19,663 nucleotides of DNA from a virus (lineage: Duplodnaviria > Heunggongvirae > Uroviricota > Caudoviricetes): positions 1 to 19,663 of the IMG/VR virus record IMGVR_UViG_2695420792_000006; one strand, 5' to 3'. The notes under the pieces are model-generated. The model made no database searches and was not told the origin of the DNA. It saw only the letters and a program-made list of their open reading frames with translations. This document shows, piece by piece, positions 1,288 to 16,870 of the stretch (the stretch's first letter is position 1; each line of letters begins with the position of its first letter). Position numbers and translations under genes: made by a program.

Positions 1288-1320
1288 TAAACCTCCCAGA
1301 CGTCCAGGAGCATTAACAGG

Positions 1321-1575: not shown

Positions 1576-1618
1576 GCCAACCTCATAAAACTTTCATCCA
1601 CGGCAGTGGCACCACACT

Positions 1619-1735
1619 TCAAACATTCGCTTCACATCTTCTGTACAACACGGTGTTGTTTATGCAGCGAACAATTTTTACCGGGTAACCGGCACTGTCG
1701 GTATACAGTTGTCCCTGATTAATCAGAGCGAACAT
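1619..1735 (-). CDS. Small hypothetical protein (38 aa)
   Basis: Internal ATG (complement of 1733-1735) of the 79-aa track ORF, preceded by a GGAGA Shine-Dalgarno at 6-nt spacing. The longer 79-aa version overlaps the upstream gene. Confidence 0.3.
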   Translation of the reverse strand: MFALINQGQLYTDSAGYPVKIVRCINNTVLYRRCEANV

Positions 1736-1766
1736 TTTTTCTCCTGCTCTCTGAATAGTGAGAACT

Positions 1767-2150: not shown

Positions 2151-2178
2151 TAACCCGGCGGTTTGCCGGGCGTGTAAG

Positions 2179-3006
2179 TTATTTAATCTGGATAAATGGT
2201 GTATTGGCACCGCTGGTCATGTATTGCGGCAGAGTACCGTTCCACTTGTTGATGGCTTCCAGCTCCATGACGCCAGGGTTCTGGCGCAGAGCTTCACCGC
2301 GTAAACGAATAGCATCGGCCTCGGCCTGGGCTTTTGTGCGAATCGCATCTGCCTGTCCGGCAGCTTCCGCGCGCAACATGTTAGCTTCCGCTTCGCGCTG
2401 TTTTACTTCCTGTTCGCGTTGCAGGGTTTTCTGGTTCGCCGTGACTTTGGCATTAATGCTGTCGATAACGGTTGGCGGGTACTCCGGCTTACCCACATAT
2501 GAGAGACTCATTACCTGAATACCGATGGGCGTCATTTCTGCCTGAATGTCTTTAAGAGCTGCATCCAGTAGTTCAGACTTCCCGCCGTCGATAAATTTGT
2601 CAGTGGTCATTTTGCTGGCCAGTCGATTGAGTGCGTCGGCGATCTTCTGGCGCAGGTCAGTATCGGTAATGTCATCCACGCCTTTGCGGTAGGTCTGAAA
2701 CACCGTGGTAACTTTGGATGGATCAACTTTGTAGGCAACACCGATGTGATAGCCAATGGTTGTGCCGTCACTCATCTGGAAGCTGAACGGCTCATCGTAG
2801 GTCTTCATTTGTTTGAAGGTTGGGAAGATGTAAACTTCAGTGTTCCATCCCGTCCAGTAGCGCCCAACACCGACCACTTCACCGACGCCTTTATCGTCGC
2901 CAAGTTTGTTTACTTTGATGCCCACATTACCAGGCTCAACGCGATCGCAACCGACAAGGCCAATGGTCGGCAGAACAAGGGCTAAAGCAAAAAGTAATTT
3001 TTTCAT
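2179..3006 (-). CDS. SPFH/band-7 (prohibitin/HflKC/YqiK-like) lipoprotein
   Basis: 275 aa. N-terminal signal peptide with lipobox LVGC. C-terminal Ala/Glu-rich coiled coil (QREAEANMLRAEAAGQADAIRTKAQAEADAIRLRGEALRQNPGVMELEAINKWNGTLP) is characteristic of SPFH-family proteins. Start codon overlaps the stop of the upstream small membrane gene. Confidence 0.8.
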   Translation of the reverse strand: MKKLLFALALVLPTIGLVGCDRVEPGNVGIKVNKLGDDKGVGEVVGVGRYWTGWNTEVYIFPTFKQMKTYDEPFSFQMSDGTTIGYHIGVAYKVDPSKVTTVFQTYRKGVDDITDTDLRQKIADALNRLASKMTTDKFIDGGKSELLDAALKDIQAEMTPIGIQVMSLSYVGKPEYPPTVIDSINAKVTANQKTLQREQEVKQREAEANMLRAEAAGQADAIRTKAQAEADAIRLRGEALRQNPGVMELEAINKWNGTLPQYMTSGANTPFIQIK

Positions 3007-3191
3007 CTTTTATCCTTAGAAAAAGAAAGACCCTTATAAATGGCATAAATGCAGGGCGGGGTCAGACACGCCAGAGCAAAGCCAGAAATCACTGCTACCG
3101 TATCCTTCATTGATATGAGGGCCGGAACGATTAATCCGTAAATACATGTGATAATTGCCAGTGATATAACTATTCTGAAATAAATGTTCAT
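3003..3191 (-). CDS. Small 2-TM membrane protein, translationally coupled to the SPFH gene
   Basis: 62 aa with two hydrophobic helices (IVISLAIITCIYGLIVPALI and AVISGFALACLTPPCIYAIY). AGGAGG Shine-Dalgarno 3 nt upstream of the ATG. 4-nt overlap with the SPFH start. Confidence 0.55.
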   Translation of the reverse strand: MNIYFRIVISLAIITCIYGLIVPALISMKDTVAVISGFALACLTPPCIYAIYKGLSFSKDKR

Positions 3192-3251
3192 GGTCCTCCT
3201 GATGTATGCGGCTTGCCTTATTTAATTGCGTCATGGTTAATTTCGTTTACG

Positions 3252-3644
3252 TCAGAATGGTTTTGTTGCCATCAGTTCGTAATATCCGGCGCTCCATGTG
3301 TCATATTTTCTGAACCATTTTTCTGTATACTGTTTCCTGGCGATGAGTCTGCGCAGTCGTCTGATTGTTCGCTGGTGTGCGCGGGTATACTCTGTGGTTG
3401 ATTCTCCACGTTTCCATATCTCATTCCCGTTGAAGATAAAACGCTTGTCAGGATAGCGTTGCCGGAATCCTGAACGTTCAAAAGCGCGGGTGGTCATAAA
3501 GAATGCCAGGTAACGAATTGCCGTTTTTCGGGTGAGGCATTTTTTTGTTCTTCCGTGGCGTGTTACAAAAAATAACGGGCCGACGGGTGTATCATGTTTC
3601 TGTAATGCCTGGTCAATGGCGCTGGCGGTGCGGTTGTCGATCAT
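3252..3644 (-). CDS. Hypothetical basic protein (Arg/Lys-rich, possible nucleic-acid binding)
   Basis: 130-aa ORF in the leftward early operon, rich in basic residues (RTIRRLRRLIARKQY). No family recognised. Confidence 0.5.
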   Translation of the reverse strand: MIDNRTASAIDQALQKHDTPVGPLFFVTRHGRTKKCLTRKTAIRYLAFFMTTRAFERSGFRQRYPDKRFIFNGNEIWKRGESTTEYTRAHQRTIRRLRRLIARKQYTEKWFRKYDTWSAGYYELMATKPF

Positions 3645-3830
3645 TTCTTTATTTCTCCCGAATAACGTTCATGACTCATTACTTCCCAGTTCCGGCCGTC
3701 GCCTTTCGATAACAGCCGCCAGCAACGGTTAACCTTCAGACTGAGATATCCGGTGCGCTGTATCCGATGCGGAAATATCCGTCGGCATCGGTACAACAAC
3801 AGGACCTGCAATGCCTGCCGGTGGATCCGC

Positions 3831-4046
3831 TCAGGAATGCGTGTTGCTGTTAATGCCACCGGTTTCCTCCTGAGCAGGTGCTGTTATCTGATACCCCGCT
3901 CTTTCTGCCAGCCGTATGAATGTATCCATGCTGGCAATCAGCTCGCCATCGCGGACTTTGCAGACACCTGTGACTTGGCCATTTTCAATTGTCATAACGA
4001 TCTGCACTTTTTCGCGCACAACAGATACAGGGGATAAATTAGCCAT
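3831..4046 (-). CDS. Hypothetical small protein
   Basis: 71-aa ORF in the same orientation as the early-left operon, with coding-like composition. No family recognised. Confidence 0.45.
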   Translation of the reverse strand: MANLSPVSVVREKVQIVMTIENGQVTGVCKVRDGELIASMDTFIRLAERAGYQITAPAQEETGGINSNTHS

Positions 4047-4171
4047 CAGTTAATTCCTCCACTGGTATATTTTTCTTTCGCGTAATCAATAACCTCTTGA
4101 AAAAGGTTGTCTATAATTAACTTTCCGGTTTCAGTCAGGTATTCAGTATGTTGATTAATCCCGATAGCATT

Positions 4172-4405
4172 CTAGTATGCAGTGTGGATTTCGGTTTCAC
4201 CCTCCACCCGGCCCAATTCACCACGGGTAATACCTTCGAAGCGTAACAGCAACTGGTTTATAAACTGTTCAGTTATTTCTATAGTCGCAATGTTCCCATC
4301 CGGAAGGTCAACAATAAGCAGATTACCACCTGTTTTACGTTTTATTCGATGGAGTGCCGCAACAGCTATACGGCGACGATATGTATTAATGGGTTCATAT
4401 GCCAT
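4172..4405 (-). CDS. Hypothetical small protein
   Basis: 77-aa ORF in the early-left operon. No family recognised. Confidence 0.45.
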   Translation of the reverse strand: MAYEPINTYRRRIAVAALHRIKRKTGGNLLIVDLPDGNIATIEITEQFINQLLLRFEGITRGELGRVEGETEIHTAY

Positions 4406-4604
4406 TTGTTATTTCCCGTATGCTTTACGCAGAAATAAGCAGGCAATATGCATGTAATTTTCACCGTGTTGTGCAATAAGACAGGCTGTTTTGTGTGATG
4501 TCTTATGTTTTATAAAAGTCATAATAAAGGCTCCAGTGGATTAAGTGTGTGATAATCCCCGGCGATTAAGCCGTAATATATTGTTCAGCGATAATATGTT
4601 TTAT

Positions 4605-4805
4605 TTAACTGGATAGTTCTTTTTCAGTTGCTGCTTCAGCATAGCAACGTGCAAATTCAAGAACTTCATCACCTGTTCTTTTTATTGCATCGTTGTCTGA
4701 CATTTGTAATACGACAACTGCGCATAATAAATCATGGATATTGTTTGCAAAGGAATCCGGTGCCAGGCATAAGCCTTCATACTTATCATGGATATTGCCA
4801 GTCAT
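4605..4805 (-). CDS. Hypothetical small protein (66 aa)
   Basis: Internal ATG (MTGNIHDKYEG...) with an AAGGAG Shine-Dalgarno, 5 nt downstream of the stop of the tandem-HTH gene. The longer track ORF (to 4847) would overlap that gene. Confidence 0.45.
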   Translation of the reverse strand: MTGNIHDKYEGLCLAPDSFANNIHDLLCAVVVLQMSDNDAIKRTGDEVLEFARCYAEAATEKELSS

Positions 4806-4810
4806 TGTTG

Positions 4811-5482
4811 CTACTCCTTTGCTTCTGATTTTCCCGTTAACAACCACACCAGGTCACAATTAAGCGCACTGGCCAGTGGTACTATCTGATCAGCAGGAAC
4901 TTCACAGATGCCGCATTCCCAGTCGTTTATGGGGTCACTGTAGGTATGAATCATGCGGGCAAGATCAGCTTCAGTTAAGCCCAGTTTTTTACGGGCGCTT
5001 TTGATGCGTGCGCCAATACTTTCCACATGGACTTCAGGCGCATTTACGCGAATAGCTGACTCGCTGTTTTTTTCACTCAGCAGAGAAAGCGGATCGCATC
5101 CCAGGACGTTTGCCAGGGGGATAAGCATGCTGATGGTTGGTTCGTACTCTCCGCTCTCCCATTGCAGAATAATCTCTTCGTCAAGATCGAGTAGTCTGGC
5201 CAGTTCGGTGGTCGTCAAGCCGCAGGCTTCACGTTGGGTACGGATTTTTCCAAAAAAGTGACTATGCGAAACCATAGCTTTTGCCTCACATAGTTTTTCT
5301 GCAAAAATTGATGCAGTTTCTTCTGTTTTTTGCAGGGAACGCATCAGGCATCTGATTGCATTATAAACCCTCTCACTTTCTGCTCCGTTTTCTGACATGT
5401 AGGAATAGATCATTCCAAGCAGCGAGCCGCCTTCTTGTATTTGTGCTGCAATTTCATCCATCACCTTAACTGCATGCTTCAT
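4811..5482 (-). CDS. Tandem HTH (XRE-type) DNA-binding protein with unknown N-terminal domain; first gene of the pL-like operon
   Basis: 223 aa. Two XRE-like helix-turn-helix segments (TTTELARLLDLDEEIILQWESGEYEPT and LTEADLARMIHTYSDPINDWECGICEVPADQI). AGGAGG Shine-Dalgarno 4 nt upstream. A consensus sigma70-like promoter lies immediately upstream. Confidence 0.7.
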   Translation of the reverse strand: MKHAVKVMDEIAAQIQEGGSLLGMIYSYMSENGAESERVYNAIRCLMRSLQKTEETASIFAEKLCEAKAMVSHSHFFGKIRTQREACGLTTTELARLLDLDEEIILQWESGEYEPTISMLIPLANVLGCDPLSLLSEKNSESAIRVNAPEVHVESIGARIKSARKKLGLTEADLARMIHTYSDPINDWECGICEVPADQIVPLASALNCDLVWLLTGKSEAKE

Positions 5483-5507
5483 ATGAGCCTCCTGTTGTTT
5501 TAATTTT

Positions 5508-5536
5508 ACAATAGCTAAAGCGTTTGGTTATGTCAA
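5508..5536 (-). promoter_or_regulatory. pL-like promoter (-35 TTGACA, 17-bp spacer, -10 TATTGT) with overlapping operator-like motif
   Basis: Minus-strand reading gives TTGACA(17 nt)TATTGT upstream of the 223-aa gene. The 13-mer TCAATCGCTATAG (5533-5545) overlaps the -35 and recurs at 6448-6460 beside the cro-like promoter. Confidence 0.5.
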
Positions 5537-5658
5537 TCGCTATAGCTATGCATTTTGAGCAGCAAAGAACAGATTATGAGAGAAATGAGACGATACGTAG
5601 GGAGTTGAGATACAGGAAAGTAGAGCAGCTGCGCAATACAGCTGCCGGTGATGTTGAC

Positions 5659-6363
5659 TTATCCGACCCTGTTATACTGGATTGACTGATGAATGAGAAC
5701 TTTCCCCATTATGAATAGATGTTCTTCAGCTGATTCACTTATAAACCATTCCTTGTAGGCCGGATTGTCTGATATAACAGCAAGTTGCATCCCTTGCATT
5801 TGCAGGCGTTTGATATGGAAGGTGTGCCCAAAAATAAAAACATAGATACCGTCAGTTTCAAAATTTCTGACGGATACGTCGACAAACACCTGATCTCCTG
5901 CACACAGAGTAGGAGCCATGCTGTCGCCATCAACTGTTATCATCTTTATGATATTTGCTGGCCTGCTACAGAACAGACGTCTTGCGGCGTCATGTGAAAA
6001 TTCTATAGCATGGACCGTTTCTGCAAAATCTGAAACAAGGAATGTTCCTGGTCCCGCGCTGGCAGCGATATCCAGGACTTCCACACGAAAAATATCCTTA
6101 TCATTTTCCAGCGGGGAATATGATACCTGTGGTGTCGGATTGCAGGATGTGCTTTCTTCTGGGGTCATAGGACCAACACCGTACGATAGCCACTCGGGGC
6201 GCACGTTCAGGGTATTGGCTATCTCCACAACTTTCCTGGAGCCTGTGGCACCATTAACCAGTTTATTTACGCTCGATTGAGCCATGCCAACCTCTCTGGC
6301 CAGTTTTCCCTGCGAGTATCCGCGGATAGTCATAGCTAACTGTAGCCTGTCTGAAAAGCTCAT
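5659..6363 (-). CDS. cI-like prophage repressor (HTH_XRE + S24 LexA-like peptidase domain)
   Basis: N-terminal HTH (YSQGKLAREVGMAQSSVNKLVNG) and C-terminal S24-like region with the GDSM serine motif and a downstream lysine (VDGDSMAPT ... HIKRL). Start set at the ATG with an AGGAGG Shine-Dalgarno at 6368-6373 rather than the longer track ORF. Divergent from a cro-like gene. Confidence 0.85.
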   Translation of the reverse strand: MSFSDRLQLAMTIRGYSQGKLAREVGMAQSSVNKLVNGATGSRKVVEIANTLNVRPEWLSYGVGPMTPEESTSCNPTPQVSYSPLENDKDIFRVEVLDIAASAGPGTFLVSDFAETVHAIEFSHDAARRLFCSRPANIIKMITVDGDSMAPTLCAGDQVFVDVSVRNFETDGIYVFIFGHTFHIKRLQMQGMQLAVISDNPAYKEWFISESAEEHLFIMGKVLIHQSIQYNRVG

Positions 6364-6387
6364 AAGTCCTCCTTTTTCTGCCCTTTT

Positions 6388-6416
6388 AGTGTATCGCCTT
6401 AGCGATATATACACAA
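6388..6416 (-). promoter_or_regulatory. pRM-like promoter for the repressor (-35 TTGTGT, 17 bp, -10 TACACT) overlapping a palindromic operator
   Basis: Read on the minus strand. The palindrome TATCGCcttaGCGATA (6392-6407) lies in the spacer. Confidence 0.4.
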
Positions 6417-6432
6417 ACCGCTTTTCCGCACA

Positions 6433-6461
6433 TTGTAATCGCTTTGATCAATCGCTATAGT
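6433..6461 (+). promoter_or_regulatory. pR-like promoter for the cro-like gene (-35 TTGTAA, 17 bp, -10 TATAGT) with AATCGCT operator repeats in the spacer
   Basis: TTGTAA at 6433-6438, 17-nt spacer, TATAGT at 6456-6461, about 25 nt upstream of the cro-like ATG. Direct repeats AATCGCT occur at 6437-6443 and 6450-6456. Confidence 0.45.
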
Positions 6462-6486
6462 GAATGGAATCAGGTTGGAGGTCGAT

Positions 6487-6750
6487 ATGAAAAATGAAGG
6501 TATAGCCAAGGCTGTAGATATTGCGGGAAGCCAGATTGCTCTGGCTAGGCGTTGTGGTCGCGCGCAGTCAACAATTTGCGACTGGCTGAATGGGAAGAAA
6601 AAAATTTCTCCTGAATTTGTTCCGTCTCTGGTTAAGGCGGTCGATGGGAAAGTCCAGGCGTATGAATTTCGTCCTGATCTACCGGAGCTTTTCCCACACC
6701 CAAGCTTAGCGCACACAGAAGATGGAGTGTGCGAAGGAGATAAACAGTGA
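6487..6750 (+). CDS. Cro/YdaS-like HTH regulator
   Basis: ATG at 6487 with a GGAGG Shine-Dalgarno at 5-nt spacing. HTH segment (IAGSQIALARRCGRAQSTICDWLNG). Divergent from the cI-like repressor, the classic immunity-region layout. Confidence 0.7.
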   Translation: MKNEGIAKAVDIAGSQIALARRCGRAQSTICDWLNGKKKISPEFVPSLVKAVDGKVQAYEFRPDLPELFPHPSLAHTEDGVCEGDKQ

Positions 6751-7454
6751 ATACAGCAATTTTTACCGACAAAGCATCTATGACCAGCGTTGAGATTGCT
6801 GAGTTGGTTGGTAAGCGCCATGACAATGTAAAACGCACTATTGAAACATTAGCCAAAGGTGGTGTTGTCCGGTCTCCTCAAATTGAGGTTTCCGAAAGAA
6901 TCAATAACTTAGGGTTTAAAGTTCAACACGAGCATTATCTGTTTGAAGGCGAACAAGGCAAACGCGACAGCATTATTGTTGTCGCACAGCTTTGCCCTGA
7001 ATTCACCGCCCGCCTGGTAGACCGCTGGCGTGAACTGGAAGAACAGATCCGTAAGCCAATGAGCGAAATCGAAATGGTTGCCGCGATGGCGCTCGAGGCT
7101 GTTCGCCAACAAAGACGTCTTGAGCATGTGGAAGAGAAAGTCATCCACGTTACCGAAACAGTCGAGCAAATCAAAAGAGGCACCATACGCGATGGTTATG
7201 CAGGCTACCGTCAGCTGGTGGCGAAAACGGGTATGTCAGATGCGAAATGTCGCAATCTGGTGAACGCATATCAGATCCCTACTGACACCCATGAATTTAT
7301 GACGCCGGATGGATTGTTGTCTCGTCGCGCGATTGTTGCAGTAGAACCCTTCATGTCTGCTTTTCATCGCATGATGAGTGAAGCAGAACCACGGGGTACT
7401 CGCTGGTATCACCCGAAGATGGGGCTGTTCCAGGCGCTGGGCTGGCAGGGGTAA
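6747..7454 (+). CDS. Rha-family phage regulatory protein
   Basis: N-terminal Rha-type motif (MTSVEIAELVGKRHDNVKRTIETL). GTG at 6747 has an AAGGAG Shine-Dalgarno at 7-nt spacing and overlaps the cro-like stop. An alternative ATG start lies at 6780. Confidence 0.65.
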   Translation: MNTAIFTDKASMTSVEIAELVGKRHDNVKRTIETLAKGGVVRSPQIEVSERINNLGFKVQHEHYLFEGEQGKRDSIIVVAQLCPEFTARLVDRWRELEEQIRKPMSEIEMVAAMALEAVRQQRRLEHVEEKVIHVTETVEQIKRGTIRDGYAGYRQLVAKTGMSDAKCRNLVNAYQIPTDTHEFMTPDGLLSRRAIVAVEPFMSAFHRMMSEAEPRGTRWYHPKMGLFQALGWQG

Positions 7455-7473
7455 TTATGCTCACAGGTAACAC

Positions 7474-7653
7474 ATGCAAGTACTCAATCGCTGGTTCCGT
7501 GATGGAAGAGGGCGTCGCGTCCACGTTATACGCTGGGAGCCTGAAACACAGCGGGTTATTTACCTGCGTGATGGTTATCCGGATGAGTGCTTCAGCCCAC
7601 TATGGTTGTTTCGTCGTGATTTTGTTGAGTGCGAAGCGCCACCAGCATATTGA
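7474..7653 (+). CDS. Small hypothetical protein (59 aa) in an alternate frame to the track ORF
   Basis: My translation of ATG 7474 gives MQVLNRWFRDGRGRRVHVIRWEPETQRVIYLRDGYPDECFSPLWLFRRDFVECEAPPAY, which looks protein-like. It falls below the track's length cut-off. The overlapping N-terminal 157 aa of the 340-aa track ORF look non-native. Confidence 0.35.
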   Translation: MQVLNRWFRDGRGRRVHVIRWEPETQRVIYLRDGYPDECFSPLWLFRRDFVECEAPPAY

Positions 7654-7927
7654 TTCTGCAATTCCGGGACGTTACACTGCTCAGGCACCTTATAAAGCGG
7701 GTGCCGGGATTGGCGTCCTGAAACTTACAGAAGAGCATAACCGCGCTCATGCGGTTTTTTCATGTCATGAGCATTGCTACGCCCAAATTATGGTGGGGCG
7801 TGCAGGGGCATCGCAAGATGCGCCGGGTTCTTCTGTGACCGGTTACGCCAACCCTGTACGTCTCACCACCTCTGTGATTGGCGTCCCATGTGGTGAGTGT
7901 TTTAAACTCACAGAAGGGGCTGTCATC

Positions 7928-8479
7928 ATGACTACTCTCCCAACCATCGCTCAACCTGAACTTTGCATTGTTGCTGGCAAAGTGGTTACTTCTTCTCTGT
8001 CTGTTGCCTGTTATTTCCGCAAACAACACAAAAATGTCATTCAAAAAATTGCGTCTCTTGAATGCTCTGCCGAATTTACTGAGCTGAATTTTCAGCCCAG
8101 TGAATACACCGACGCATCAGGCCGCAAACTCCCTTGTTACCAAATCACCCGCGACGGTTTTGCATTTCTTGCTATGGGTTTCACGGGTAAACGTGCTGCC
8201 CGGTTCAAAGAAGCATACATCAATGCCTTTAACCAGATGGAGAGGTGCTTATCAGGAGTTGGTGCGGCTGATATGCCATCTGTCGCACAAAACGCCAGAG
8301 GCGTATACCTGCATTTGCGAGAAATCCACCAAATCTGGACAAGCCAGCTTTATCCCATGCTTAAGGCTGTTGAATCTCCGCTGGCTAGCAAACTGTACGA
8401 CCGTGTAGGTGATGCTGTTTTTGGTGCTGCACTTGTTGATTCCAGACTGAACGGTTCTGACAAGGAGGCGCACCCATGA
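7928..8479 (+). CDS. Rha-family phage regulatory protein (second copy)
   Basis: Rha-type core from MTTLPTIAQPELCIVAGKVVTSSLSVACYFRKQHKNVIQKI ... TRDGFAFLAMGFTGKRAARFKEAYINAFNQME. ATG at 7928 preceded by GAAGGGG. The upstream 7457-7927 part of the track ORF is probably not part of this protein. Confidence 0.6.
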   Translation: MTTLPTIAQPELCIVAGKVVTSSLSVACYFRKQHKNVIQKIASLECSAEFTELNFQPSEYTDASGRKLPCYQITRDGFAFLAMGFTGKRAARFKEAYINAFNQMERCLSGVGAADMPSVAQNARGVYLHLREIHQIWTSQLYPMLKAVESPLASKLYDRVGDAVFGAALVDSRLNGSDKEAHP

Positions 8480-8709
8480 TTCGCCGCGTCGTTAGTTCCC
8501 TGTATCACCGATACAACCACTGCCCCCGTGTGGGGCAGTGGTTCACCACCAGCAACGGTCACGTTCTGCGGGTTTGCCTGGTCAATACAGAAAGCCAGAA
8601 GGTTGTCTGCCAGGTTCAGGGATGTACTCATACCCTGAGTTATCCGCTGGTGGCGTTTCAGTCCGGAAAAATGTTTAAACGCCTGGGAGGTGGCTATGCG
8701 TCCGTCTGA
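8476..8709 (+). CDS. Small Cys/His-containing hypothetical protein
   Basis: 77 aa. Perfect AAGGAGG Shine-Dalgarno at 7-nt spacing. ATGA overlap with the preceding Rha gene stop. Confidence 0.45.
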   Translation: MIRRVVSSLYHRYNHCPRVGQWFTTSNGHVLRVCLVNTESQKVVCQVQGCTHTLSYPLVAFQSGKMFKRLGGGYASV

Positions 8710-9589
8710 TCTTCTGCTCGATTTTGGACATCCGGTTGCTTATTACCCTGGGCTCGTTAAATACATGGGAAGTCCGCACGCTGTTATTTTCTTTGGTCAG
8801 ATTTTTTACTGGCAGGATAAAGCACATGCAGCGGAAGGCGTACATAAAACGCGTGAAGAGATACAACACGAAACAGGACTTACATTTGAACAACAGGCTG
8901 TAGCGCGTAAGTATCTTGTGTCCAGAGGCATTTTGGTTGAAACCAACAAGCGTCTTGAGCACAAAATGTTCTACCGTATAGATTGTGAGCGCCTTAATGA
9001 AATTATCAATGAAAACAATCAGTTTTCCCGAAATGGGGAAACCCGTTTTCGGGAAACTGTAAAACCCAATTTCGCGGAGGAGGGAAAGCCTTCACCGCGG
9101 ACACGGGAAACCCCTCGCCGCGGAGAAGGGAAAACCAATTTCGATCTTACAGAGAATACAACAGAGATTACTTCAGAGAATACTACAGAGAGTAAAAACA
9201 CTATTGGCGCATCCGCTGACGCGTCTGCACCAGCACGTTCTGCCCGACAGGAATATTCACCGGAATTTGAACAGGCCTGGCAGGAATATCCCAAACGTGC
9301 TGGTGGTAATTCCAAGTCAGCAGCCTTCAAAGCCTGGAAAGCCCGTATCAGGGAAGGTGTGACACCCGAAACCATGCTCAACGGTGTGAAACGCTATGCC
9401 GCCTGGGTGCGTGTCTCAGGAAATACCGGCACCCAGTTCGTGAAGCAGGCATCGACGTTCTTTGGCCCCGATCGGCACTTTGACGAATCCTGGCAACAGT
9501 CAGCAGCTCCCGGAGGTGGGCGGGGCAAAAGCCTCCCGATCTCGGGATTCAGTGAACAGGACTACGGCTCAACGAACTTCAACTGGTGA
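8696..9589 (+). CDS. Phage replication initiation protein (O-like replisome organiser) carrying internal iteron-like repeats
   Basis: ATG at 8696 with GGAGG 5 nt upstream. Lies directly upstream of the DnaC-like and DnaB-like genes. Contains a repeat-rich internal DNA segment (9023-9190), as the lambda O gene contains ori. Confidence 0.6.
   Translation: MRPSDLLLDFGHPVAYYPGLVKYMGSPHAVIFFGQIFYWQDKAHAAEGVHKTREEIQHETGLTFEQQAVARKYLVSRGILVETNKRLEHKMFYRIDCERLNEIINENNQFSRNGETRFRETVKPNFAEEGKPSPRTRETPRRGEGKTNFDLTENTTEITSENTTESKNTIGASADASAPARSARQEYSPEFEQAWQEYPKRAGGNSKSAAFKAWKARIREGVTPETMLNGVKRYAAWVRVSGNTGTQFVKQASTFFGPDRHFDESWQQSAAPGGGRGKSLPISGFSEQDYGSTNFNW
9023..9190. repeat. Iteron-like repeats (CGGGAAA/GGGAAAnC, about 6 copies) followed by an AT-rich tandem 24-bp repeat; candidate origin of replication
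   Basis: Copies at about 9023-9030 (inverted), 9035-9044, 9050-9057, 9082-9088, 9104-9111 and 9128-9135. Then cagagaatacaacagag / cagagaatactacagag at 9150-9190. Confidence 0.45.
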
Positions 9590-9606
9590 TTTTGTGGGGT
9601 GTGAAA

Positions 9607-10497
9607 ATGATTAATTTCCTGAACAAACAACACATGCAACACGACAAAGCGCAATTACTCAACCGCAGTGCGGAGCTGGAGGAGGAGATGCAGTTTGCCC
9701 GTGCCGGGAAGCGTCCGTGGCGCTGTGAGCACTGGCTGGCAAGCGATGAGACTGCAGAGTGTGAGAAGCACGGAAAATATACTCGTCTGGTGTTGAAAGG
9801 GCCAGATATTCGCGGAGAAACCATCAAACGGGTATCCGGATGTCCGCGCTGCATCGCAGAAGAACTGGATCACGTGCATGACGAATTACGCGCCCTGAAG
9901 GTTCGTGAATTACTCGATCAGGCCGGTATTGCCCGCCGCTTTGAGAACTGCGAGTTTGAGAACTATCAGGCTGTGAATGCCGGGGCTCAGCGGAATCTTG
10001 ATGCCTGCCAGCGTTATGTCGATGCCTGGAAGGATCACCTCGCGGCGGGTACCAGCATGATCATGATTGGCAATTGCGGTACCGGGAAAAATCACCTGGC
10101 TGTATCAATGGCAAAAAATATTATTCGCCACCACCTGGCGACCGTCGAAATTACGGATGTTATGCGACTGACCCGCGCTGTGAAAAATACATGGCGTCAC
10201 AATTCTGAACGCACTGAAGATGAAGTTATTGACCATTTTGTATCACTGGACCTGCTCATCATTGATGAAGTCGGTGTTCAGTTTGGCACGCCTGCCGAGA
10301 TAACCATCCTGCAGGAAATCATCAACGCGCGTTACGAAAGTATTCTGCCAACAATTCTGATCAGCAACCTGACGTTTGACCAGCTTAAGGAGTCCATTGG
10401 TGAGCGAATTGTAGATCGCGTTACTGACGGCGGGCGTAACCGCCTGGTGTTTGGCTGGGAGAGCTACCGGGCAAATATCGGAGGTGTTGCCGCATGA
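9607..10497 (+). CDS. DnaC-like helicase loader (AAA+ ATPase, IstB/DnaC family) with N-terminal Cys4 zinc-binding region
   Basis: Walker A motif GNCGTGKNHLAVS, Walker B motif LLIIDEVG, and an N-terminal four-Cys cluster (CEHW...CEKHG...CPRC). Start may be the GTG at 9586 (track) or the ATG at 9607. Confidence 0.8.
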   Translation: MINFLNKQHMQHDKAQLLNRSAELEEEMQFARAGKRPWRCEHWLASDETAECEKHGKYTRLVLKGPDIRGETIKRVSGCPRCIAEELDHVHDELRALKVRELLDQAGIARRFENCEFENYQAVNAGAQRNLDACQRYVDAWKDHLAAGTSMIMIGNCGTGKNHLAVSMAKNIIRHHLATVEITDVMRLTRAVKNTWRHNSERTEDEVIDHFVSLDLLIIDEVGVQFGTPAEITILQEIINARYESILPTILISNLTFDQLKESIGERIVDRVTDGGRNRLVFGWESYRANIGGVAA

Positions 10498-11894
10498 CCA
10501 GCCAGAACAACCCGGCATGGCGTAACGATGACCTGGAAGGTGCGGTGATTGGCGCGTTTTTTCTGCGTGGGGCTGATCCGGAAGTGATGGATATTCTGGC
10601 CACGCTTCCGGCGGATGTATTTTTCGTGCGTCAGTACCGGGATATTTACGCGGGGATTTGCAGACAGGCCCGCGTATCCGGCGTCATTGACCCCGTGCTG
10701 CTGTGCAATGAGATGCCGGAACTTGCCCCGGTGATTACCGACACCGGGCGCAAAACCTGGGTGAAGTCTTCACTGGAGCACTATGTTGCAGCGCTGCGAC
10801 GCAATGCCGCACTGCGCGATGCAGAAAAAACACTGACTGAAGCATTACAGAATTTACGTGATGCACATACCTGCGAAGCGGCAGAAGATGCCCTGAAGGA
10901 TGCGCAGAACATGATGGCCTCACTGTCGACCGGAAAGGGCGTCATTCAGCCGGTTCACATTGATGATGTCCTTCCGGAAGTGGTGGGCCGTGTTGAATGC
11001 CGGAATCAGGGACTGGAGAAATCCAGGGCGCTGATGACCGGTATTGATGAACTGGACGCAAAAACGGGCGGTATGGAGCCCGGAGACCTGGTATTCATTG
11101 CCGCCCGTCCTTCGATGGGGAAAACAGAACTTGCGCTGGACATCATCGACAAGGTGACTGAGCAGGGGCATGGCGTGCTTCTGTTCACCATGGAGATGGC
11201 GAACATCCAGATTGGTGAACGTATGGTGTCTGCAGCAGGGGGAATGCCGGTATCCCGTCTTAAGTCTGTTGCCCGTTTTGAAGATGAAGACTGGGCGCGT
11301 TTCTCACAGGGCGTGGGACGAATGACGGGGCGTAATATCTGGATGGTGGACCAGGCAAATCTGACCATTGATGAGATATGTGCAACCACGAGGTACCACC
11401 GGATGAAGCATCCGGAAACGGCGCTGGTGGTGGTCGATTACCTCGGCCTGATTAAAACCCGCAGCACGGGGCGTCACGACCTTGCGGTGGGGGAAATCTC
11501 AAAGGGACTTAAAAGCCTGGCAAAATCCGGCGGTTTTCCGCTGATTGCTCTGAGCCAGCTCTCCCGCGGCGTGGAATCCAGACCCAATAAACGTCCCATG
11601 AACTCAGACCTGAAAAACTCCGGGGAAATCGAGGCTGATGCCGACATCATTCTGATGCTTTACAGGGATGAGGTGTATAACCCGGATACACAGGCGAGAG
11701 GCATAGCAGAAATCAACATCACGAAACAGCGTAATGGCACGCTCGGGACCATTTACCGGCGTTTTCATAACGGACATTTTCTGCCTGTGGACCAGGAGAG
11801 TGCCCGGGTTCTTTCCACACCCATGACGCCGGGCAATCCGCGCAGATACAGCAATAACCGCATGTCGGGCAGTAAAGCGGAGCGTTTATTTTGA
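10494..11894 (+). CDS. DnaB-family replicative DNA helicase
   Basis: DnaB-type motifs GIDELDAKTGGMEPGDLVFIAARPSMGKTELALDI (Walker A), VVVDYLGLI, and LSQLSR(G)VE. ATGA overlap with the loader gene. Confidence 0.85.
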   Translation: MTSQNNPAWRNDDLEGAVIGAFFLRGADPEVMDILATLPADVFFVRQYRDIYAGICRQARVSGVIDPVLLCNEMPELAPVITDTGRKTWVKSSLEHYVAALRRNAALRDAEKTLTEALQNLRDAHTCEAAEDALKDAQNMMASLSTGKGVIQPVHIDDVLPEVVGRVECRNQGLEKSRALMTGIDELDAKTGGMEPGDLVFIAARPSMGKTELALDIIDKVTEQGHGVLLFTMEMANIQIGERMVSAAGGMPVSRLKSVARFEDEDWARFSQGVGRMTGRNIWMVDQANLTIDEICATTRYHRMKHPETALVVVDYLGLIKTRSTGRHDLAVGEISKGLKSLAKSGGFPLIALSQLSRGVESRPNKRPMNSDLKNSGEIEADADIILMLYRDEVYNPDTQARGIAEINITKQRNGTLGTIYRRFHNGHFLPVDQESARVLSTPMTPGNPRRYSNNRMSGSKAERLF

Positions 11895-12148
11895 ATAACA
11901 GAACAGCCACTGTTTCACCGGAACAACTTCGTCGCCAGGCGCAGGAGATGCTTCGTTGTGCTGAACAGATGGAAAAAATGAGCGTGGCAAAGGATACGCT
12001 CCGCAAGCAGCTTACTCCGGCGCTTCGTGATCTGCTGCAGGCAAAACACCGCACACAAAAGGCGGTGGATGAGCTGGTGGATTGCGTGGCGGAACTGGAA
12101 GGCAAGGTAAGCCAGTTTGAAACTCTGGTGAAGGAGTTTACTGCGTGA
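11891..12148 (+). CDS. Small coiled-coil hypothetical protein (start uncertain, track start is TTG)
   Basis: 85-aa ORF overlapping the helicase stop. Charged, helical-looking sequence. No family recognised. Confidence 0.35.
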   Translation: MNNRTATVSPEQLRRQAQEMLRCAEQMEKMSVAKDTLRKQLTPALRDLLQAKHRTQKAVDELVDCVAELEGKVSQFETLVKEFTA

Positions 12149-12193
12149 TGGCTGAATTTTTTCTCCTGTGTTCATGCAATATCGTTCGCTGAG

Positions 12194-13189
12194 GTGACCG
12201 TGAGAGCATTGTTGACTCCTGAAATTGCCCCGCGAATGGGGATTGTATTGTTCAGACCCGGTTCAGAGCTGATGCCCCTGTTTATGCAGGGGCGTGTCCT
12301 GCTGGAGCCTGAGCCGGAACGTTATTCATCTTTCGCCAGTGGTGCCGTTCCGGCGGCATCACAACCGCTGGCGGATGATCCTGCCGTTCGGGCCGTGTTC
12401 CGCAATGAGGCAGTGATCCGTCGTGCTGGTGGCGTGGAATGTCTTGAAAGCTGGTTACTTCGTGAAAAAGGCTGCCAGTGGCTTCATTCCGACTGGCACA
12501 GCGAGAACATGACCACAATGCGACACGCGCCGGGCGCAATCCGTCTGTGCTGGCACTGCGATAACCAGCTGCGCGATCAGTTCACGGAACGGCTGGAATC
12601 AATGGCAACGGATAACTGTGCCCGCTGGGTGTTGTCTGTTGTGCGTCGGGATCTCGGTTTTGATGACAGTCACGTTGTGACAATGCCGGAACTGTGCTGG
12701 TGGCTGGTTCGTAATAATCTGGCGGATGCCTTACCGGAAAGCGCAGCCCGTAAGGCACTGAGATTACCGAATCCTGTTGTGCCGTCTGTCACCCGGGAAA
12801 GTGACCTTGTGCCTTCGGTTCCTGCCACCAGCATCATCCAGGATAAGGCGAAAAAGGTGCTGGCGCTGAAAGTGGATCCGGAGTCGCCGGAGTCTTTTAT
12901 GTTACGCCCAAAACGTCGCCGCTGGGTTAATGAAAAGTACACGCGCTGGGTTAAGACACAGCCGTGCGCATGTTGTGGAAAGCCTGCTGATGATCCCCAC
13001 CACCTGATAGGCCACGGTCAGGGGGGAATGGGTACAAAAGCGCATGACCTCTTTGTGTTGCCTTTGTGCAGAAAGCATCACGACGAGCTGCATGCGGATA
13101 CCGTGGCATTTGAAGAGAAGTATGGCTCCCAGCTGGAGCTGATATTTCGTTTTATCGATCGCGCGCTGGCAACTGGCGTGCTGGCCTGA
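12194..13189 (+). CDS. DUF968-like phage protein with C-terminal HNH-like zinc-finger motif
   Basis: C-terminus CACCGKPADDPHHLIGHGQGGMGTKAHDLFVLPLCRKHHDELH matches an HNH-type CxxC...HH...CxxxHH pattern. Lies immediately upstream of Q, as ydfU-like genes do in E. coli cryptic prophages (recollection). Track start is GTG; the true start is unresolved. Confidence 0.55.
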   Translation: MTVRALLTPEIAPRMGIVLFRPGSELMPLFMQGRVLLEPEPERYSSFASGAVPAASQPLADDPAVRAVFRNEAVIRRAGGVECLESWLLREKGCQWLHSDWHSENMTTMRHAPGAIRLCWHCDNQLRDQFTERLESMATDNCARWVLSVVRRDLGFDDSHVVTMPELCWWLVRNNLADALPESAARKALRLPNPVVPSVTRESDLVPSVPATSIIQDKAKKVLALKVDPESPESFMLRPKRRRWVNEKYTRWVKTQPCACCGKPADDPHHLIGHGQGGMGTKAHDLFVLPLCRKHHDELHADTVAFEEKYGSQLELIFRFIDRALATGVLA

Positions 13190-13206
13190 TTTTGTGGATA
13201 AAGTTT

Positions 13207-13572
13207 ATGCGTGATATTCAGATGGTTCTGGATCGTTGGGGTGCATGGGCGGCGAGTGATAGTTCTGGGGTAGACTATTCGCCTATAGCTGCTGGGTTTA
13301 AAGGGCTTCTTCCCTATACAAGCAAAACACGTCAGGCTTGTTCAGATAGTGATGCATTAATTATTGAAGGTTGTCTTGCTCGTCTAAAGCAAAAAAGACC
13401 TGAAGAACACTCGCTTCTTGTTGCCCATTACCTATACGGTATCTCTAAAAGAAAGCTCGCCAAAGCTCGTAAAAAGGATGAGAAACTAATACGCATTGAG
13501 ATACAGATGGCTGAGGGTTTTGTTGAAGGCTGTCTCTCAATGCTTGATCTTTGTCTGGAAATGGACCAATAG
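13207..13572 (+). CDS. Late-gene antiterminator Q (QuuD/phage 21-type Q family)
   Basis: MRDIQMVLDRWGAWAA...GFKGLLP...EGCLARLK...LEMD closely resembles the roughly 125-aa Q antiterminators of E. coli lambdoid prophages as I recall them. ATG at 13207 preferred over the TTG track start. Confidence 0.8.
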   Translation: MRDIQMVLDRWGAWAASDSSGVDYSPIAAGFKGLLPYTSKTRQACSDSDALIIEGCLARLKQKRPEEHSLLVAHYLYGISKRKLAKARKKDEKLIRIEIQMAEGFVEGCLSMLDLCLEMDQ

Positions 13573-13583
13573 ACTACCAGAAT

Positions 13584-13620
13584 AGAAACTGCCGCTCAGC
13601 TTTGCGGATCGGCAGTTTCT
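13584..13620. repeat. Perfect 11-bp inverted repeat (AGAAACTGCCG / CGGCAGTTTCT, 15-nt loop) between convergent genes
   Basis: Lies between the Q stop and the stop of the minus-strand 140-aa gene, whose 3' end it overlaps. No U-tract on either side. Confidence 0.5.
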
Positions 13621-14018
13621 GATGGTGTAATGTTACGCGCAGATGTTTCGAGTATAGATTCCCTTCCGATTGATACCAAAATTTCGATTGTTCTTGCTTT
13701 AGCCTGCATCAATGTTGATTTTATTTCAGGACTTAAGTGGTCAGATCGTAACTGCTTCTCAATCTCAGCCAAATCACGCTTGCATTTTGCTCTTTTGGCT
13801 GCGTCCTCTGGAGATTCGAAACCATGCCTCGAAATAAACCAATTCATGACGTAAGTTAAAGTTGCCGCAACACCCGGTACCAATGCGTAGGCTACAGTTC
13901 GCCACACGCTATTAGGGTCGGTTAAAATCGCGCTAACAAGAACACTTAGAATTGCTCCCCAGCCACCAGTTGAAAGGGTAGCTTTTCCTGTACTTAGACC
14001 TTTAGTTTGAGAATTCAT
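13596..14018 (-). CDS. Cassette gene 3: 2-TM membrane protein with cytoplasmic coiled-coil tail
   Basis: 140 aa. Hydrophobic helices WGAILSVLVSAIL and VAYALVPGVAATLTYVMNWFI, followed by a charged C-terminal region. Start overlaps the stop of the upstream gene. Confidence 0.6.
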   Translation of the reverse strand: MNSQTKGLSTGKATLSTGGWGAILSVLVSAILTDPNSVWRTVAYALVPGVAATLTYVMNWFISRHGFESPEDAAKRAKCKRDLAEIEKQLRSDHLSPEIKSTLMQAKARTIEILVSIGRESILETSARNITPSETADPQS

Positions 14019-14284
14019 TTTCGTTTTGAATTCTCCGCAATTGCCTCTTCAATGAGGGTTGTTAGCATTTTTCCCTTTTTACTTGGAACTTTTATTACTA
14101 GCGTCTTAGTCACTCCGGATTCTTCATCGTGATATCGGAATTCGAAGACTTTTGTAGGGAATAGTCGACGCCAAAGCAAGGCTGACGCTGAATAGCAAAA
14201 ACGACTAAAGGCAGGGATGATCATTATCACCCCAATCCAGAAGATCAGTTGTGCTATCTGCATGTTCAGTGTCACTTTTGTCAA
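14015..14284 (-). CDS. Cassette gene 2: small membrane protein (1-2 TM)
   Basis: 89 aa. Hydrophobic N-terminus (IAQLIFWIGVIMIIPAF) and a Lys-rich soluble tail. 4-nt overlaps with both neighbouring genes. Confidence 0.55.
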   Translation of the reverse strand: MTKVTLNMQIAQLIFWIGVIMIIPAFSRFCYSASALLWRRLFPTKVFEFRYHDEESGVTKTLVIKVPSKKGKMLTTLIEEAIAENSKRK

Positions 14285-15150
14285 GCCTCAGCAGGGCGTT
14301 TTCGTTTTACTTTGGTTATAGCATACTTGGTTGTGGCATTTCGCGCAGTGAAAGTTTTTATAGTTTTTAGCTCAACAACAAACAAATCTTCTTTTGTAAA
14401 ACTGATGATTCCATTTTGAACTTGGTGTATAAACAACTGATCTTCAAATGTAACAGCATGCTCCTCGCCTAAATAATCGATTCTCCAACCCTTTGTACCC
14501 TCGAAGTTGATCTGTACGAATCTAACATTGACTTCTTCTACAGACTCTTCTTTTTCAAGTAGTGTACCTCTAGGCAGCGGTTTGATCTCTTCAGTTTCAC
14601 TTCCTTCAAGACGAACGACTTCTTCGCCTTCATCATTTAGCACCTTAAATACTGCACCTTGTTTGCCGTCTAATGGTGCACGAACTACATTCACAAGGGC
14701 ATCACGGACTTCAGGATCTGTTACTAACTTAGCCACTGAGTCATGGCAAACAATTTCTTCCCCTTCAAGTTCAAGAACAGATTCTTCTGTTCCTGCCCGT
14801 TTTGTTACCGAAATTACTTTCTTGCTGCCCAGTTGGCGGATTAGTGATAATGCTGGAGCTCCAATAGCAGCCCCGGCTATCCCTGTTAGGCCAATCACTT
14901 TTGCGACGTCGACGGCATGAGGAACAAGCTCCATCATCGTATAGGATACGCCGAGTGATCCCGCTTCTGCTGGATTAGTAACCATTAACTTAACGGTTTG
15001 TTGACCGTCATTAAGTCTTTTATCAGCTGCTGATATTAAATCTGCCATCGAACCTATGGAGATGCTTAATGTTTTGGCATCAATTTTATGCTGTGCTAAT
15101 TCGTTATCCTCTGCATCGTAGAAGATCTGAAAAGAAGTTGTTTTAGTCAC
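14281..15150 (-). CDS. Cassette gene 1: 289-aa hypothetical protein with a central hydrophobic/Gly-Ala segment and acidic stretches
   Basis: No family recognised. Central hydrophobic segment VAKVIGLTGIAGAAIGAPALSLI and acidic runs (LELEGEEIV, EGSETEE). Track start is GTG with a weak Shine-Dalgarno, so the start is uncertain. Locally AT-rich. Confidence 0.55.
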   Translation of the reverse strand: MTKTTSFQIFYDAEDNELAQHKIDAKTLSISIGSMADLISAADKRLNDGQQTVKLMVTNPAEAGSLGVSYTMMELVPHAVDVAKVIGLTGIAGAAIGAPALSLIRQLGSKKVISVTKRAGTEESVLELEGEEIVCHDSVAKLVTDPEVRDALVNVVRAPLDGKQGAVFKVLNDEGEEVVRLEGSETEEIKPLPRGTLLEKEESVEEVNVRFVQINFEGTKGWRIDYLGEEHAVTFEDQLFIHQVQNGIISFTKEDLFVVELKTIKTFTARNATTKYAITKVKRKRPAEA

Positions 15151-15394
15151 TCTTTGCTCGCTATGTCTTGACTTTTTTCCATAAAATACCTTTTTTGGGT
15201 ATAAAAAACATTATCGCGGTCCGCAAAAATTGCGTTACTGTGTTAAGAGTGGTTACTTCGCCACACAGCTTAAACCCGCCGTCGAGCGGTTTTTTTGTAC
15301 CTGTAAACCTGGTGCAGTACAGTAAACACGCTGGTGGCGGTGAATACCTGTCTTTCAGCTTGCTGGCTTTTTCGACAAGAGTTATTGGTATGTC

Positions 15395-15622
15395 ATGTCA
15401 ACCAGAAGGGAAAAAGACATGCTAAAACAGCAAGATATGACAGAAACCGCCGCCGCAGTCCTTCATTTCTTACCTGCTGACAAGTGGGTAACGCCACGCA
15501 TGATGACGAGAACTACAGGAGTAAGCGAAGCCCGGTGCCAGTTAATACTGACTCAGTTAGTTCTGGCGGGTCTGGCGAAGGATAACGGCGGGTACGGGAA
15601 TAAATTCAGACGCTGCCAGTAA
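15395..15622 (+). CDS. Small hypothetical protein, possibly winged-helix DNA-binding (alternative start ATG 15419)
   Basis: 75-aa ORF upstream of the methyltransferase. The internal ATG at 15419 has an AGAAGGGA Shine-Dalgarno. Helix-rich segment VSEARCQLILTQLVLAGLAKDNGG. Confidence 0.4.
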   Translation: MSTRREKDMLKQQDMTETAAAVLHFLPADKWVTPRMMTRTTGVSEARCQLILTQLVLAGLAKDNGGYGNKFRRCQ

Positions 15623-15772
15623 TGGCGGTTTCCTGCTGTGAAAATGGGCGGCTGGTGGGTGTTGGTAGCACCTGCCAGCCATTCGCTCATGCTTACTGGT
15701 CACAAGCGAACCATGGCCCACTGCTTTAGCGCAAAAGCAGAGTGAGCCTACCAGAGTTACGCTTACTGATCC

Positions 15773-16830
15773 ATGAAAAATACTGTAAAAATAAACAGTG
15801 TTGATTTAATCAACGCTGATTGCCTGCATTTTATTCAGTCCCTGCCTGATGATTCCATTGACCTGATTGTTACCGATCCGCCGTACTTCAAGGTGAAACC
15901 CAACGGCTGGGACAATCAGTGGAAAGGGGACGAAGATTACCTTAAGTGGCTGGACCACTGTCTTGCGCAGTTCTGGCGGGTGCTGAAACCTGCAGGAAGT
16001 CTATACCTGTTCTGTGGGCATCGCCTGGCATCTGACACCGAAATCATGATGCGTGAGCGGTTTAACGTGCTGAACCATATCATCTGGGCAAAGCCGTCCG
16101 GACGCTGGAACGGGTGTAACAAGGAAAGCCTGCGGGCGCATTTTCCGGCCACAGAGCGCATTCTGTTCGCGGAACATTATCAGGGGCCGTATCGCCCGAA
16201 AGATGATGGCTGTGAGGCGAAGGGCAGGGCACTGAAACAGCATGTGATGGCCCCGCTGATTGCTTACTTTCGTGATGCGCGCGCTGCCCTGGGGATAACG
16301 GCAAAACAGATTGCAGATGCCACAGGAAAGAAAAACATGGTGTCGCACTGGTTCAGTGCCAGTCAGTGGCAGCTGCCGAACGAAAGCGATTATCTGAAAT
16401 TACAGGCCCTGTTTGCCCGGGTGGCAGAAGAGAAGCATCAGCGCGGTGAACTGGAATGGCCCCACCACCAGCTGGTGGATACGTATACGTCACTGAACCG
16501 GCAGTATGTGGAGCTGCAGAGTGAATATAAGCATCTGCGGCGGTATTTTGGTGTGACGGCGCAGGTGCCGTACACGGATGTGTGGACATATAAACCGGTG
16601 CAGTTCTATCCCGGGAAACATCCGTGCGAAAAACCGGCAGAAATGCTGCAGCAGATAATCAGCGCAAGCAGTCGTCCGGGTGACCTGGTTGCAGATTTTT
16701 TATGGGCTCAGGTTCAATGGTAAAAGCGGCACTGGCGCTCGGGCGTCGTGCGATTGGCGTTGAACTGGAGGCCGGACGTTTTGAGCAGACAGTCAGGGAA
16801 GTTCAGGATTTCATCGTTCGAAACGGATGA
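15773..16830 (+). pseudogene. DNA methyltransferase (N6-adenine/N4-cytosine class, DPPY motif) interrupted by a -1 frameshift in a T6 run
   Basis: Motif IV DPPY (IVTDPPYF). The reading frame stops at 16723 (ADFLWAQVQW*). Adding one T to the run at 16696-16701 would read ADFFMGSGSMVKAALALGRRAIGVELEAGRFEQTVREVQDFIVRNG*, restoring the FxGxG SAM-binding motif and ending at 16830. Confidence 0.65.
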
Positions 16831-16870
16831 GATTGCAGAATTAATTACGGACCGTTATTATCCGGCTCCC

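Follow-up and report, generated by a model that had tools for sequence, protein, structure and literature searches.

The segment between positions 9024 and 9195 of the window, the 19,663-nucleotide (nt) stretch analysed here (positions 1 to 19,663 of the IMG/VR virus record IMGVR_UViG_2695420792_000006), is most probably the vegetative replication origin of a lambdoid prophage resembling Shiga toxin (Stx)-converting phages, judging from its sequence and that of its relatives. The candidate origin resides inside the prophage's own replication initiator gene (8696–9589, plus strand, 297 amino acids (aa)) and, by analogy with lambda, would be of the theta type. It consists of five iterons with a 23-bp period, directly followed by a 12-bp tandem array that is the candidate DNA-unwinding and helicase-loading element. 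An origin within the initiator gene is an expected and well-known design, and the part worth following is the 12-mer, which recurs in phages of several bacterial phyla. The sequence-only reading, an earlier annotation of the stretch made without database searches, had placed iteron-like repeats at 9023–9190 inside the initiator gene and regarded them as a candidate origin. The repeats are indeed located there, between the regions coding for the N- and C-terminal domains, and every in-silico prediction of that reading held.

The iterons define a register of five units that start at 9036, 9059, 9082, 9105 and 9128, span 9036–9143 and share a 16-bp core, GGGAAAnCCnnTTTCG. A full dyad, GGAAA-N5-TTTCG, is displayed by iteron 1 (GGGAAACCCGTTTTCG, 9036–9051), by iteron 2 (GTAAAACCCAATTTCG, 9059–9074), the left arm of which is degenerate (GTAAAA), and by iteron 5 (GGGAAAACCAATTTCG, 9128–9143), which adjoins the 12-mer array. 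Iteron 3 (GGGAAAGCCTTCACCG, 9082–9097) and iteron 4 (GGGAAACCCCTCGCCG, 9105–9120) present the left half-site alone; all five are on the plus strand. The array is opened by the palindrome TTTCCCGAAATGGGGAAA (9024–9041), in which an inverted half-site adjoins iteron 1 and which is conserved in orthologues. When the DNA is folded as a single strand, this palindrome pairs with 9042–9059 as a hairpin. At the opposite end, the segment ATTTCGATC at iteron 5 is invariant in 7/7 orthologues. Similarly, a GATC placed where iteron 5 meets the 12-mers (9143–9146) is invariant in seven enterobacterial orthologues and is replaced by GTTAAC or GTTAAT in relatives from the Burkholderia group and the Pasteurellaceae; a link of the junction GATC to Dam methylation is possible.

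The hexamer GGGAAA is found on the plus strand at 9036, 9051, 9082, 9105 and 9128, with an inverted copy at 9024. The sequence-only reading had described about six copies of CGGGAAA/GGGAAAnC at a spacing of 15–25 bp. Its count of six stands, one copy being inverted and five on the plus strand, while the spacing has to be replaced by the 23-bp register of five units, the second of them degenerate. Six occurrences of GGGAAA/TTTCCC fall within 110 bp, whereas no more than three appeared in any of 300 dinucleotide-preserving shuffles. Over the whole window GGGAAA occurs 24 times against 11.9 expected, a number reached by 0/200 shuffles. A scan of 8600–9700 with Rfam returned no match, and thus no known RNA element accounts for the repeats.

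The 12-bp tandem array (9148–9195, plus strand) begins 5 bp past iteron 5. Tandem Repeats Finder assigns it a period of 12 and 3.7 copies over 9148–9191, which supersedes the duplicated 24-bp AT-rich unit described earlier; the peptide TENTTEITSENTTES, with the repeated ENTTE reported for that unit, is present as claimed. The cores, of the type AGAWTAC, are AGAATAC (9153–9159), AGATTAC (9165–9171) and AGAATAC (9177–9183), followed by a degenerate AGAGTAA (9189–9195), and exact CAGAGAWTAC occurs within the window in the array only. Nearest-neighbour stability ranks the array as the gene's least stable 40-bp duplex and places it in the top 0.8% of the window. In the single-stranded fold the iteron part collapses into two strong hairpins (z-score, z = -5.07) and the 12-mers stay open.

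About 50 Escherichia coli prophage contigs, with N-terminal domains 97–100% identical to that of the window, all carry the same five iterons, so that iteron number, which the earlier reading had proposed to compare among related prophages, is constant at this level. The in-register GGGAAA is unchanged in every distinct E. coli prophage sequence listed, and the off-register copy (9051) and the inverted copy (9024) show one variant each among these contigs. The repeats are kept not only in close relatives but also in orthologues with 56–76% aa identity, so that the refuting condition named in the earlier reading, repeats missing or unconserved among closely related initiator genes, did not hold. 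Relatives with 36–85% identity in the N-terminal domain have three to seven copies of a similar iteron, for instance GGGAAAGCCCATTTCG, GGGAAAGTCCATTYCG, GCGGAAAGCGCATTTCG, CCCGAAAGTGACATTCG and GACGAAAACGCATTTCG, from Yersinia, Serratia, Klebsiella, Burkholderia/Paraburkholderia, Pasteurellaceae and Acinetobacter. The initiator of phiP27 shares its C-terminal domain with the window at ~90% DNA identity, but its N-terminal domain is unrelated and it carries different repeats, CCTTCAGAATCTG, and a different AT-rich unit. The initiators of mEp460, Pantoea AH07 and the BL21 prophage have an N-terminal domain of another subfamily, other iterons (e.g. ATCGGGTCAAAATG) and the same 12-mers, and in Acinetobacter TRS1 both the N-terminal domain and the iterons are different. 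On these comparisons the iteron sequence co-varies with the N-terminal domain and not with the C-terminal domain, which is what one would expect of iterons bound, as in lambda, by the N-terminal domain.

The sequences demonstrate the build of the repeats, their non-random occurrence, the selection acting on them as DNA, the co-variation of iterons and N-terminal domain and the conserved order of genes; we infer that the initiator binds, that the DNA melts and that the helicase is loaded, as well as the direction in which replication runs. In the proposed mechanism, dimers of the winged-helix-like N-terminal domain would bind the five dyad-type iterons, whose 23-bp spacing corresponds to ~2.2 helical turns. 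The resulting nucleoprotein complex, similar to the lambda O-some, would strain the DNA and melt the adjacent 12-bp array. The C-terminal domain would then bring the phage DnaC-like loader and DnaB-like helicase to the opened strands, where host primase and polymerase would take over. Lambdoid phages are known to switch to rolling-circle replication.

Conservation alone does not separate an origin from an operator, and plasmid iterons also act in autorepression and handcuffing. The iterons could accordingly be initiator-binding sites for autoregulation, copy control or exclusion of related phages, with replication starting elsewhere. Their location makes this improbable, as they are more than 300 bp inside the gene and away from its promoter; a promoter and terminator scan returned one site of each, not above shuffles, and no promoter-like site above chance at the iterons. 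The 'terminator' called at the iterons was rejected, as it is the iteron palindrome read on the minus strand. In addition, the least stable duplex is always positioned directly after the iterons, as in oriLambda, and the 19.7-kb window contains no second iteron or 12-mer cluster and no further exact iteron match.

The 12-mer array extends far beyond the relatives that share the iterons. The full 211-bp repeat segment is present in 101/5426 complete E. coli genomes, and the 40-bp piece 9143–9182 alone, at 97.5% identity, in 1416 of them (26%), in every case inside a phage initiator-like gene. When phage genomes were searched with high sensitivity, the 12-mer piece was found, at 83–93% identity, within the initiator genes of phages from Acinetobacter, Klebsiella, Vibrio, Erwinia, Burkholderia, Synechococcus, Bacillus, Staphylococcus and Lactobacillus, and in the phage initiator genes read the 12-mers stand directly behind a lineage-specific iteron array. 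The exact 23-mer ACAGAGAWTACWACAGAGAWTAC occurs in at least 120 IMG/VR viral contigs of 29–59% GC. In 112 of the 120 contigs listed the match is inside an open reading frame fitting a profile hidden Markov model of the N-terminal domain, built from ten seed sequences, and most of the others are cut by the contig end. Two sets of non-redundant genes found by protein similarity alone, of 58 and 61 members, display two or more AGANTAC cores at 12–13 bp spacing in 53/58 and 59/61 genes, respectively. As far as sequences can tell, a ACAGAGAWTACW array follows lineage-specific iterons in homologous initiators from phages of Proteobacteria, Firmicutes and cyanobacteria. A literature search for the motif (TEITTE, TENTTE, ACAGAGATTAC and variants) found no description in searchable papers.

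A tentative reading of this distribution is that the 12-mer may act through its specific sequence, beyond mere AT-richness, in opening the origin or loading the helicase, and that this role is conserved across bacterial phyla. The 12-mer would be recognised in single- or double-stranded form, either by a surface conserved in this winged-helix initiator superfamily or by a universal host replication protein. If so, the 12-mer would be the phage counterpart of DnaA-trios and of the 13-mers of plasmid unwinding elements, as well as a crossover point for the exchange of initiator modules. Its specificity for such initiators (112 of the 120 listed matches) would then allow it to mark phage origins from sequence alone. 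A sequence rule for origins in a very large initiator superfamily would read: winged-helix-like N-terminal domain, lineage-specific iterons, ACAGAGAWTACW repeats. The question raised is why phages as far apart as those of Staphylococcus and of cyanobacteria keep one 12-mer with the same codons.

It is quite unlikely, in comparison, that the array is conserved mainly as a recombination joint between an N-terminal plus iteron module and a C-terminal module, and not for unwinding or loading. Several observations fit such a joint. The 40-bp piece is shared by otherwise unalignable initiator genes of E. coli genomes, far more often than the 211-bp segment. The locus L204 (IMGVR_UViG_2534681940_000023, ~1800–2060) is a natural recombinant: it has the N-terminal domain, five iterons and 12-mers of the window and, from the end of the 12-mers onward, the C-terminal type of mEp460, which is lambda O-like by eye. 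The number of 12-mer units is also polymorphic in near-identical E. coli prophages, with three units, or four in L174 and L190, where one extra 12-bp unit gives proteins of 306 aa vs 302 aa and the iterons are constant at five. The switch in L204 and the copy-number variation thus indicate that the array also behaves as a crossover and slippage site, which is compatible with a functional role and no replacement for it, since a conserved functional element would also serve as a crossover point. Against a joint as the main reason for conservation, the motif is found in phages whose hosts are too far apart for exchange to be recent (Staphylococcus, Bacillus, Synechococcus, Burkholderia, Terriglobia), in genomes of 29–59% GC, and it invariably stands right behind the last iteron.

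Codon usage in related genes shows that the repeats are under purifying selection as DNA and not as peptide. The window gene was compared with six orthologues of 56–76% aa identity (from Enterobacter, Klebsiella, Serratia, Pantoea and a metagenome), the same-codon fraction being computed among conserved residues. The N-terminal domain shows an aa identity of 0.87, a nucleotide identity of 0.78 and a same-codon fraction of 0.49, and the C-terminal domain 0.67, 0.69 and 0.54, respectively. The corresponding values are 0.61, 0.77 and 0.79 for the iterons and 0.80, 0.91 and 0.93 for the 12-mers. Nucleotide identity above aa identity, together with frozen synonymous sites, points to selection that acts at the DNA level. 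As the 23-bp period is no multiple of three, GGGAAA is read in all three frames and yields GET, RET, EGK, RET and GKT. In the 58-gene set, Glu in xE[INTS]T motifs is encoded by GAG 86 times and by GAA twice, compared with 643:793 in the rest of the same genes (Fisher p = 3e-26). Ile in these motifs is ATT in 39/39 cases, and the following Thr is ACT or ACA in 86/88. These codon-fixation counts come from related sequences and are not independent, although the direction of the effect is clear. The main frame accounts for 102/123 cores; the 21 translated in another frame include TLDY/TRLH (13-bp period, Pasteurellaceae), RL (a Terriglobia genome) and REY (Acinetobacter TRS1). The protein stretch encoded by the candidate origin is a predicted disordered linker, which leaves the DNA there free for cis-acting constraints. 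That the repeats are a protein feature only, a low-complexity, duplicated linker peptide (RET/GKP, TENTTE) with no cis role for the DNA, is highly improbable: the disorder of the linker and the recurrence of a TE[IN]T peptide in the family, mostly in one frame, would suit it, but each 23-bp iteron unit is translated differently, the iterons are better conserved as nucleotides than as amino acids with a same-codon fraction well above the ~0.5 of the folded domains, the Glu and Ile codons of the 12-mers are all but fixed, 21/123 cores are read in other frames, and iterons with 12-mers stand outside any initiator gene in the Bacillus plasmid pBSG3.

Several points weigh against an origin at 9024–9195. 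Two of the five iterons, 3 and 4, have incomplete dyads. The GC content of the 12-mer array, 36% vs 49% for the window (8th percentile), makes it moderately AT-rich. Conservation at the DNA level would also fit binding sites for autoregulation or copy control, and, as the compared sequences are related, the conservation counts are not independent events. A literature search yielded no paper in which the origin of an initiator of this family had been mapped. Finally, the initiator has no match to Pfam Phage_rep_O (PF04492), and hhalign, with the alignment A1 of window-type N-terminal domains as query, gives a probability of 0.4% against lambda O residues 1–115. The protein is therefore not placed in the O family, the PHROG label 'O-like' being functional only, and a superfamily common to it and lambda O is not supported by hhalign; the analogy with lambda rests on architecture. 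The parallel with lambda drawn in the sequence-only reading holds to the same extent, for the architecture and not for protein homology.

The architectural likeness to oriLambda is considerable. Each origin occupies the central part of the initiator gene, flanked by the coding regions of the DNA-binding N-terminal domain on one side and of the C-terminal domain on the other, and each is composed of dyad iterons ~20–24 bp apart followed by an easily melted AT-rich stretch. In lambda the iteron specificity likewise travels with the N-terminal domain, and the gene is likewise part of the early rightward operon. In contrast, the annotated oriLambda has four iterons in gene O and the window five, of different sequence. 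The AT-rich part of the window is a regular 12-bp repeat, whereas lambda displays a faint echo only, AGATTATTCGTCAGAGAATTC. This lambda stretch (record L163, 520–575) encodes KDYSSENS and resembles AGATTACTTCAGAGAATAC of the window (EITSENT), a similarity of the AT regions that is too weak to count as evidence. The window phage possesses its own DnaC-like loader and DnaB-like helicase, whereas lambda relies on P, which captures the host DnaB. Similarly, the C-terminal domain of the window initiator is of the phiP27 L17 type and not of the P-binding lambda O type; the C-terminal type of mEp460 and L204 resembles lambda O by eye (read, not aligned). Lambda-type origins within the initiator gene have also been described for the lambdoid phage 933W, and P22 has one as well.

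Other replication systems share parts of this design. In the RepA_N plasmid initiators (pSK41/pTZ2162 RepA; PDB 4pt7, 4pql, 5kbj) a winged-helix N-terminal domain binds iterons inside rep, and host replication proteins are brought in by a distinct C-terminal domain. These systems are plasmids and not phages, no sequence similarity to the window initiator was found, and we know of no 12-mer array in them. In SPP1, oriL is inside gene 38, so that repeats are again found in the gene of the initiator, G38P, and a separate helicase loader and a DnaB-type helicase are present. The initiators of Staphylococcus phage 37 and Bacillus phage PM1 carry the same 12-mers as the window, and homology of the N-terminal domain was established for phage 37. 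Sequence-specific unwinding elements are represented by the 13-mers of oriC and RK2, by DnaA-trios and by the binding of Rep to single-stranded repeats of the DNA-unwinding element in iteron plasmids. As in the window, where the period is 12–13 bp, these are short tandem repeats of conserved sequence beside initiator sites, and by analogy they might be the closest model for the action of the 12-mer. The 12-mer consensus ACAGAGAWTACW differs from the known elements and lies in coding DNA.

The initiator gene begins with an ATG at 8696, preceded by GGAGGTGG, and its product matches PHROG phrog_270, 'replication initiation protein' (E = 7e-63). Searches of Pfam (E <= 0.01), NCBIfam and PDB sequences with the protein gave no match, and neither did Pfam DnaD and Phage_rep_org_N. 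The gene is 96–98% identical in DNA to genes of Stx1a/Stx2a-converting phages annotated as 'phage replication protein O'. The assignment made here would place a candidate origin in a replication module that is common in Stx1-/Stx2-converting prophages and lacks the lambda O/P pair; public records annotate the initiator gene and no origin features. Once the prophage is induced, replication multiplies the phage genome and the toxin genes with it, and thus the iterons, the initiator and the loader/helicase pair constitute concrete targets for study. A survey of Stx-phage replication types (PMC8044961) reports non-lambda replication genes and describes no origins.

The N-terminal domain, the presumed iteron reader, is encoded by 8696–9034 (plus strand, aa 1–113). 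Its AlphaFold2 model is winged-helix-like, with the element order H-H-H-E-H-H-E-E-H and a predicted local distance difference test (pLDDT) score of 60–83. Foldseek returned weak, generic winged-helix matches to this model, including the iteron-binding N-terminal domains of staphylococcal plasmid RepA proteins (E 0.04–0.05, TM-score ~0.4, 15% identity); generic winged-helix proteins of the MarR/ArsR type score as well as RepA, and membership of a structural family is not claimed. By hhalign with A1, the domain is homologous to those of the Staphylococcus phage 37 initiator (97.8%, E = 7e-13) and of the mEp460 initiator (91.7%, E = 8e-7). The predicted disordered linker (aa 109–184, pLDDT ~30) is encoded by 9020–9247 on the plus strand and overlaps the candidate origin. 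It leads into a C-terminal helical domain (9248–9586, plus strand; pLDDT ~85 for aa 185–260), the presumed recruiter of the helicase or its loader. PHROG labels for the C-terminal half are 'DnaD-like helicase loader' and 'primosomal protein', and the same domain is found in the L17 protein of phiP27, where DnaC-like and helicase genes likewise follow.

Repeats of the same kind were also met in other settings. The fragment in plasmid pBSG3 (NC_014104, 8.4 kb, Bacillus; 735–845) comprises three iterons, CCTACAGGGAAAGA, and three ACAGAGATTACT units, resembles Bacillus phage PM1 and is located upstream of the plasmid's annotated 'protein rep' gene, a relaxase of the MOBV type. Five further Bacillus plasmid records of 8.4–8.9 kb contain the same match. 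This orphan fragment may serve as a decoy, be hitch-hiking or represent a remnant. In the Anaerolinea metagenome-assembled contig DYKV01000366 (~2140–2400), some ten 24-bp repeats, perfect and in frame (GTTGAAAATTCAGCATCACAT), come after a distant N-terminal relative. This unusually regular array encodes VENSASH and shows no AGANTAC cores in the stretch read. Some prophage copies of the initiator gene are pseudogenes with intact repeats: in L212 and L213 a single nucleotide is missing from the T-run before the first half-site (equivalent to window ~9020–9024), and L208 has a nonsense codon after the 12-mers. The initiator and neighbouring genes of OR842880, recorded as 'Xanthomonas phage SU1', closely match Staphylococcus phage 37, and the host assignment of that record is doubtful.

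Gene content and profile searches identify the window as the early region of a lambdoid prophage. An integrase gene (4–1287) and a CI-like repressor gene (5659–6414) are on the minus strand. Two rightward genes for regulators of the Rha/Ash/Ant type (6747–7454 and 7457–8479) are located between the repressor region and the initiator gene, which belongs to the early rightward operon downstream of that region. They are followed by a 77-aa open reading frame (8476–8709) of phrog_1153, with no function assigned, that overlaps the start of the initiator gene. On the other side, the plus strand encodes a DnaC-like helicase loader (9607–10497; Pfam IstB_IS21, E = 3.5e-16, 59.8 bits and above the gathering cut-off of 24.1; phrog_50, E = 2e-84), which reaches E = 3e-43 with the NCBIfam DnaC profile, under its curated cut-off. 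The DnaB-like replicative helicase gene comes next (10494–11894, plus strand), and its product contains DnaB_C (E = 8.7e-74; 248.6 bits, gathering cut-off 27) and the DnaB N-terminal domain (25.9 bits, cut-off 23). It also matches TIGR00665 (E = 8e-93) and TIGR03600 'phage_DnaB' (E = 8e-83), both under the curated cut-offs. The order initiator, DnaC-like, DnaB-like is kept in 6/6 sequenced orthologues. The DnaC-like gene itself harbours a 21-bp tandem duplication at 9988–10028 (2.0 copies, 80% match).

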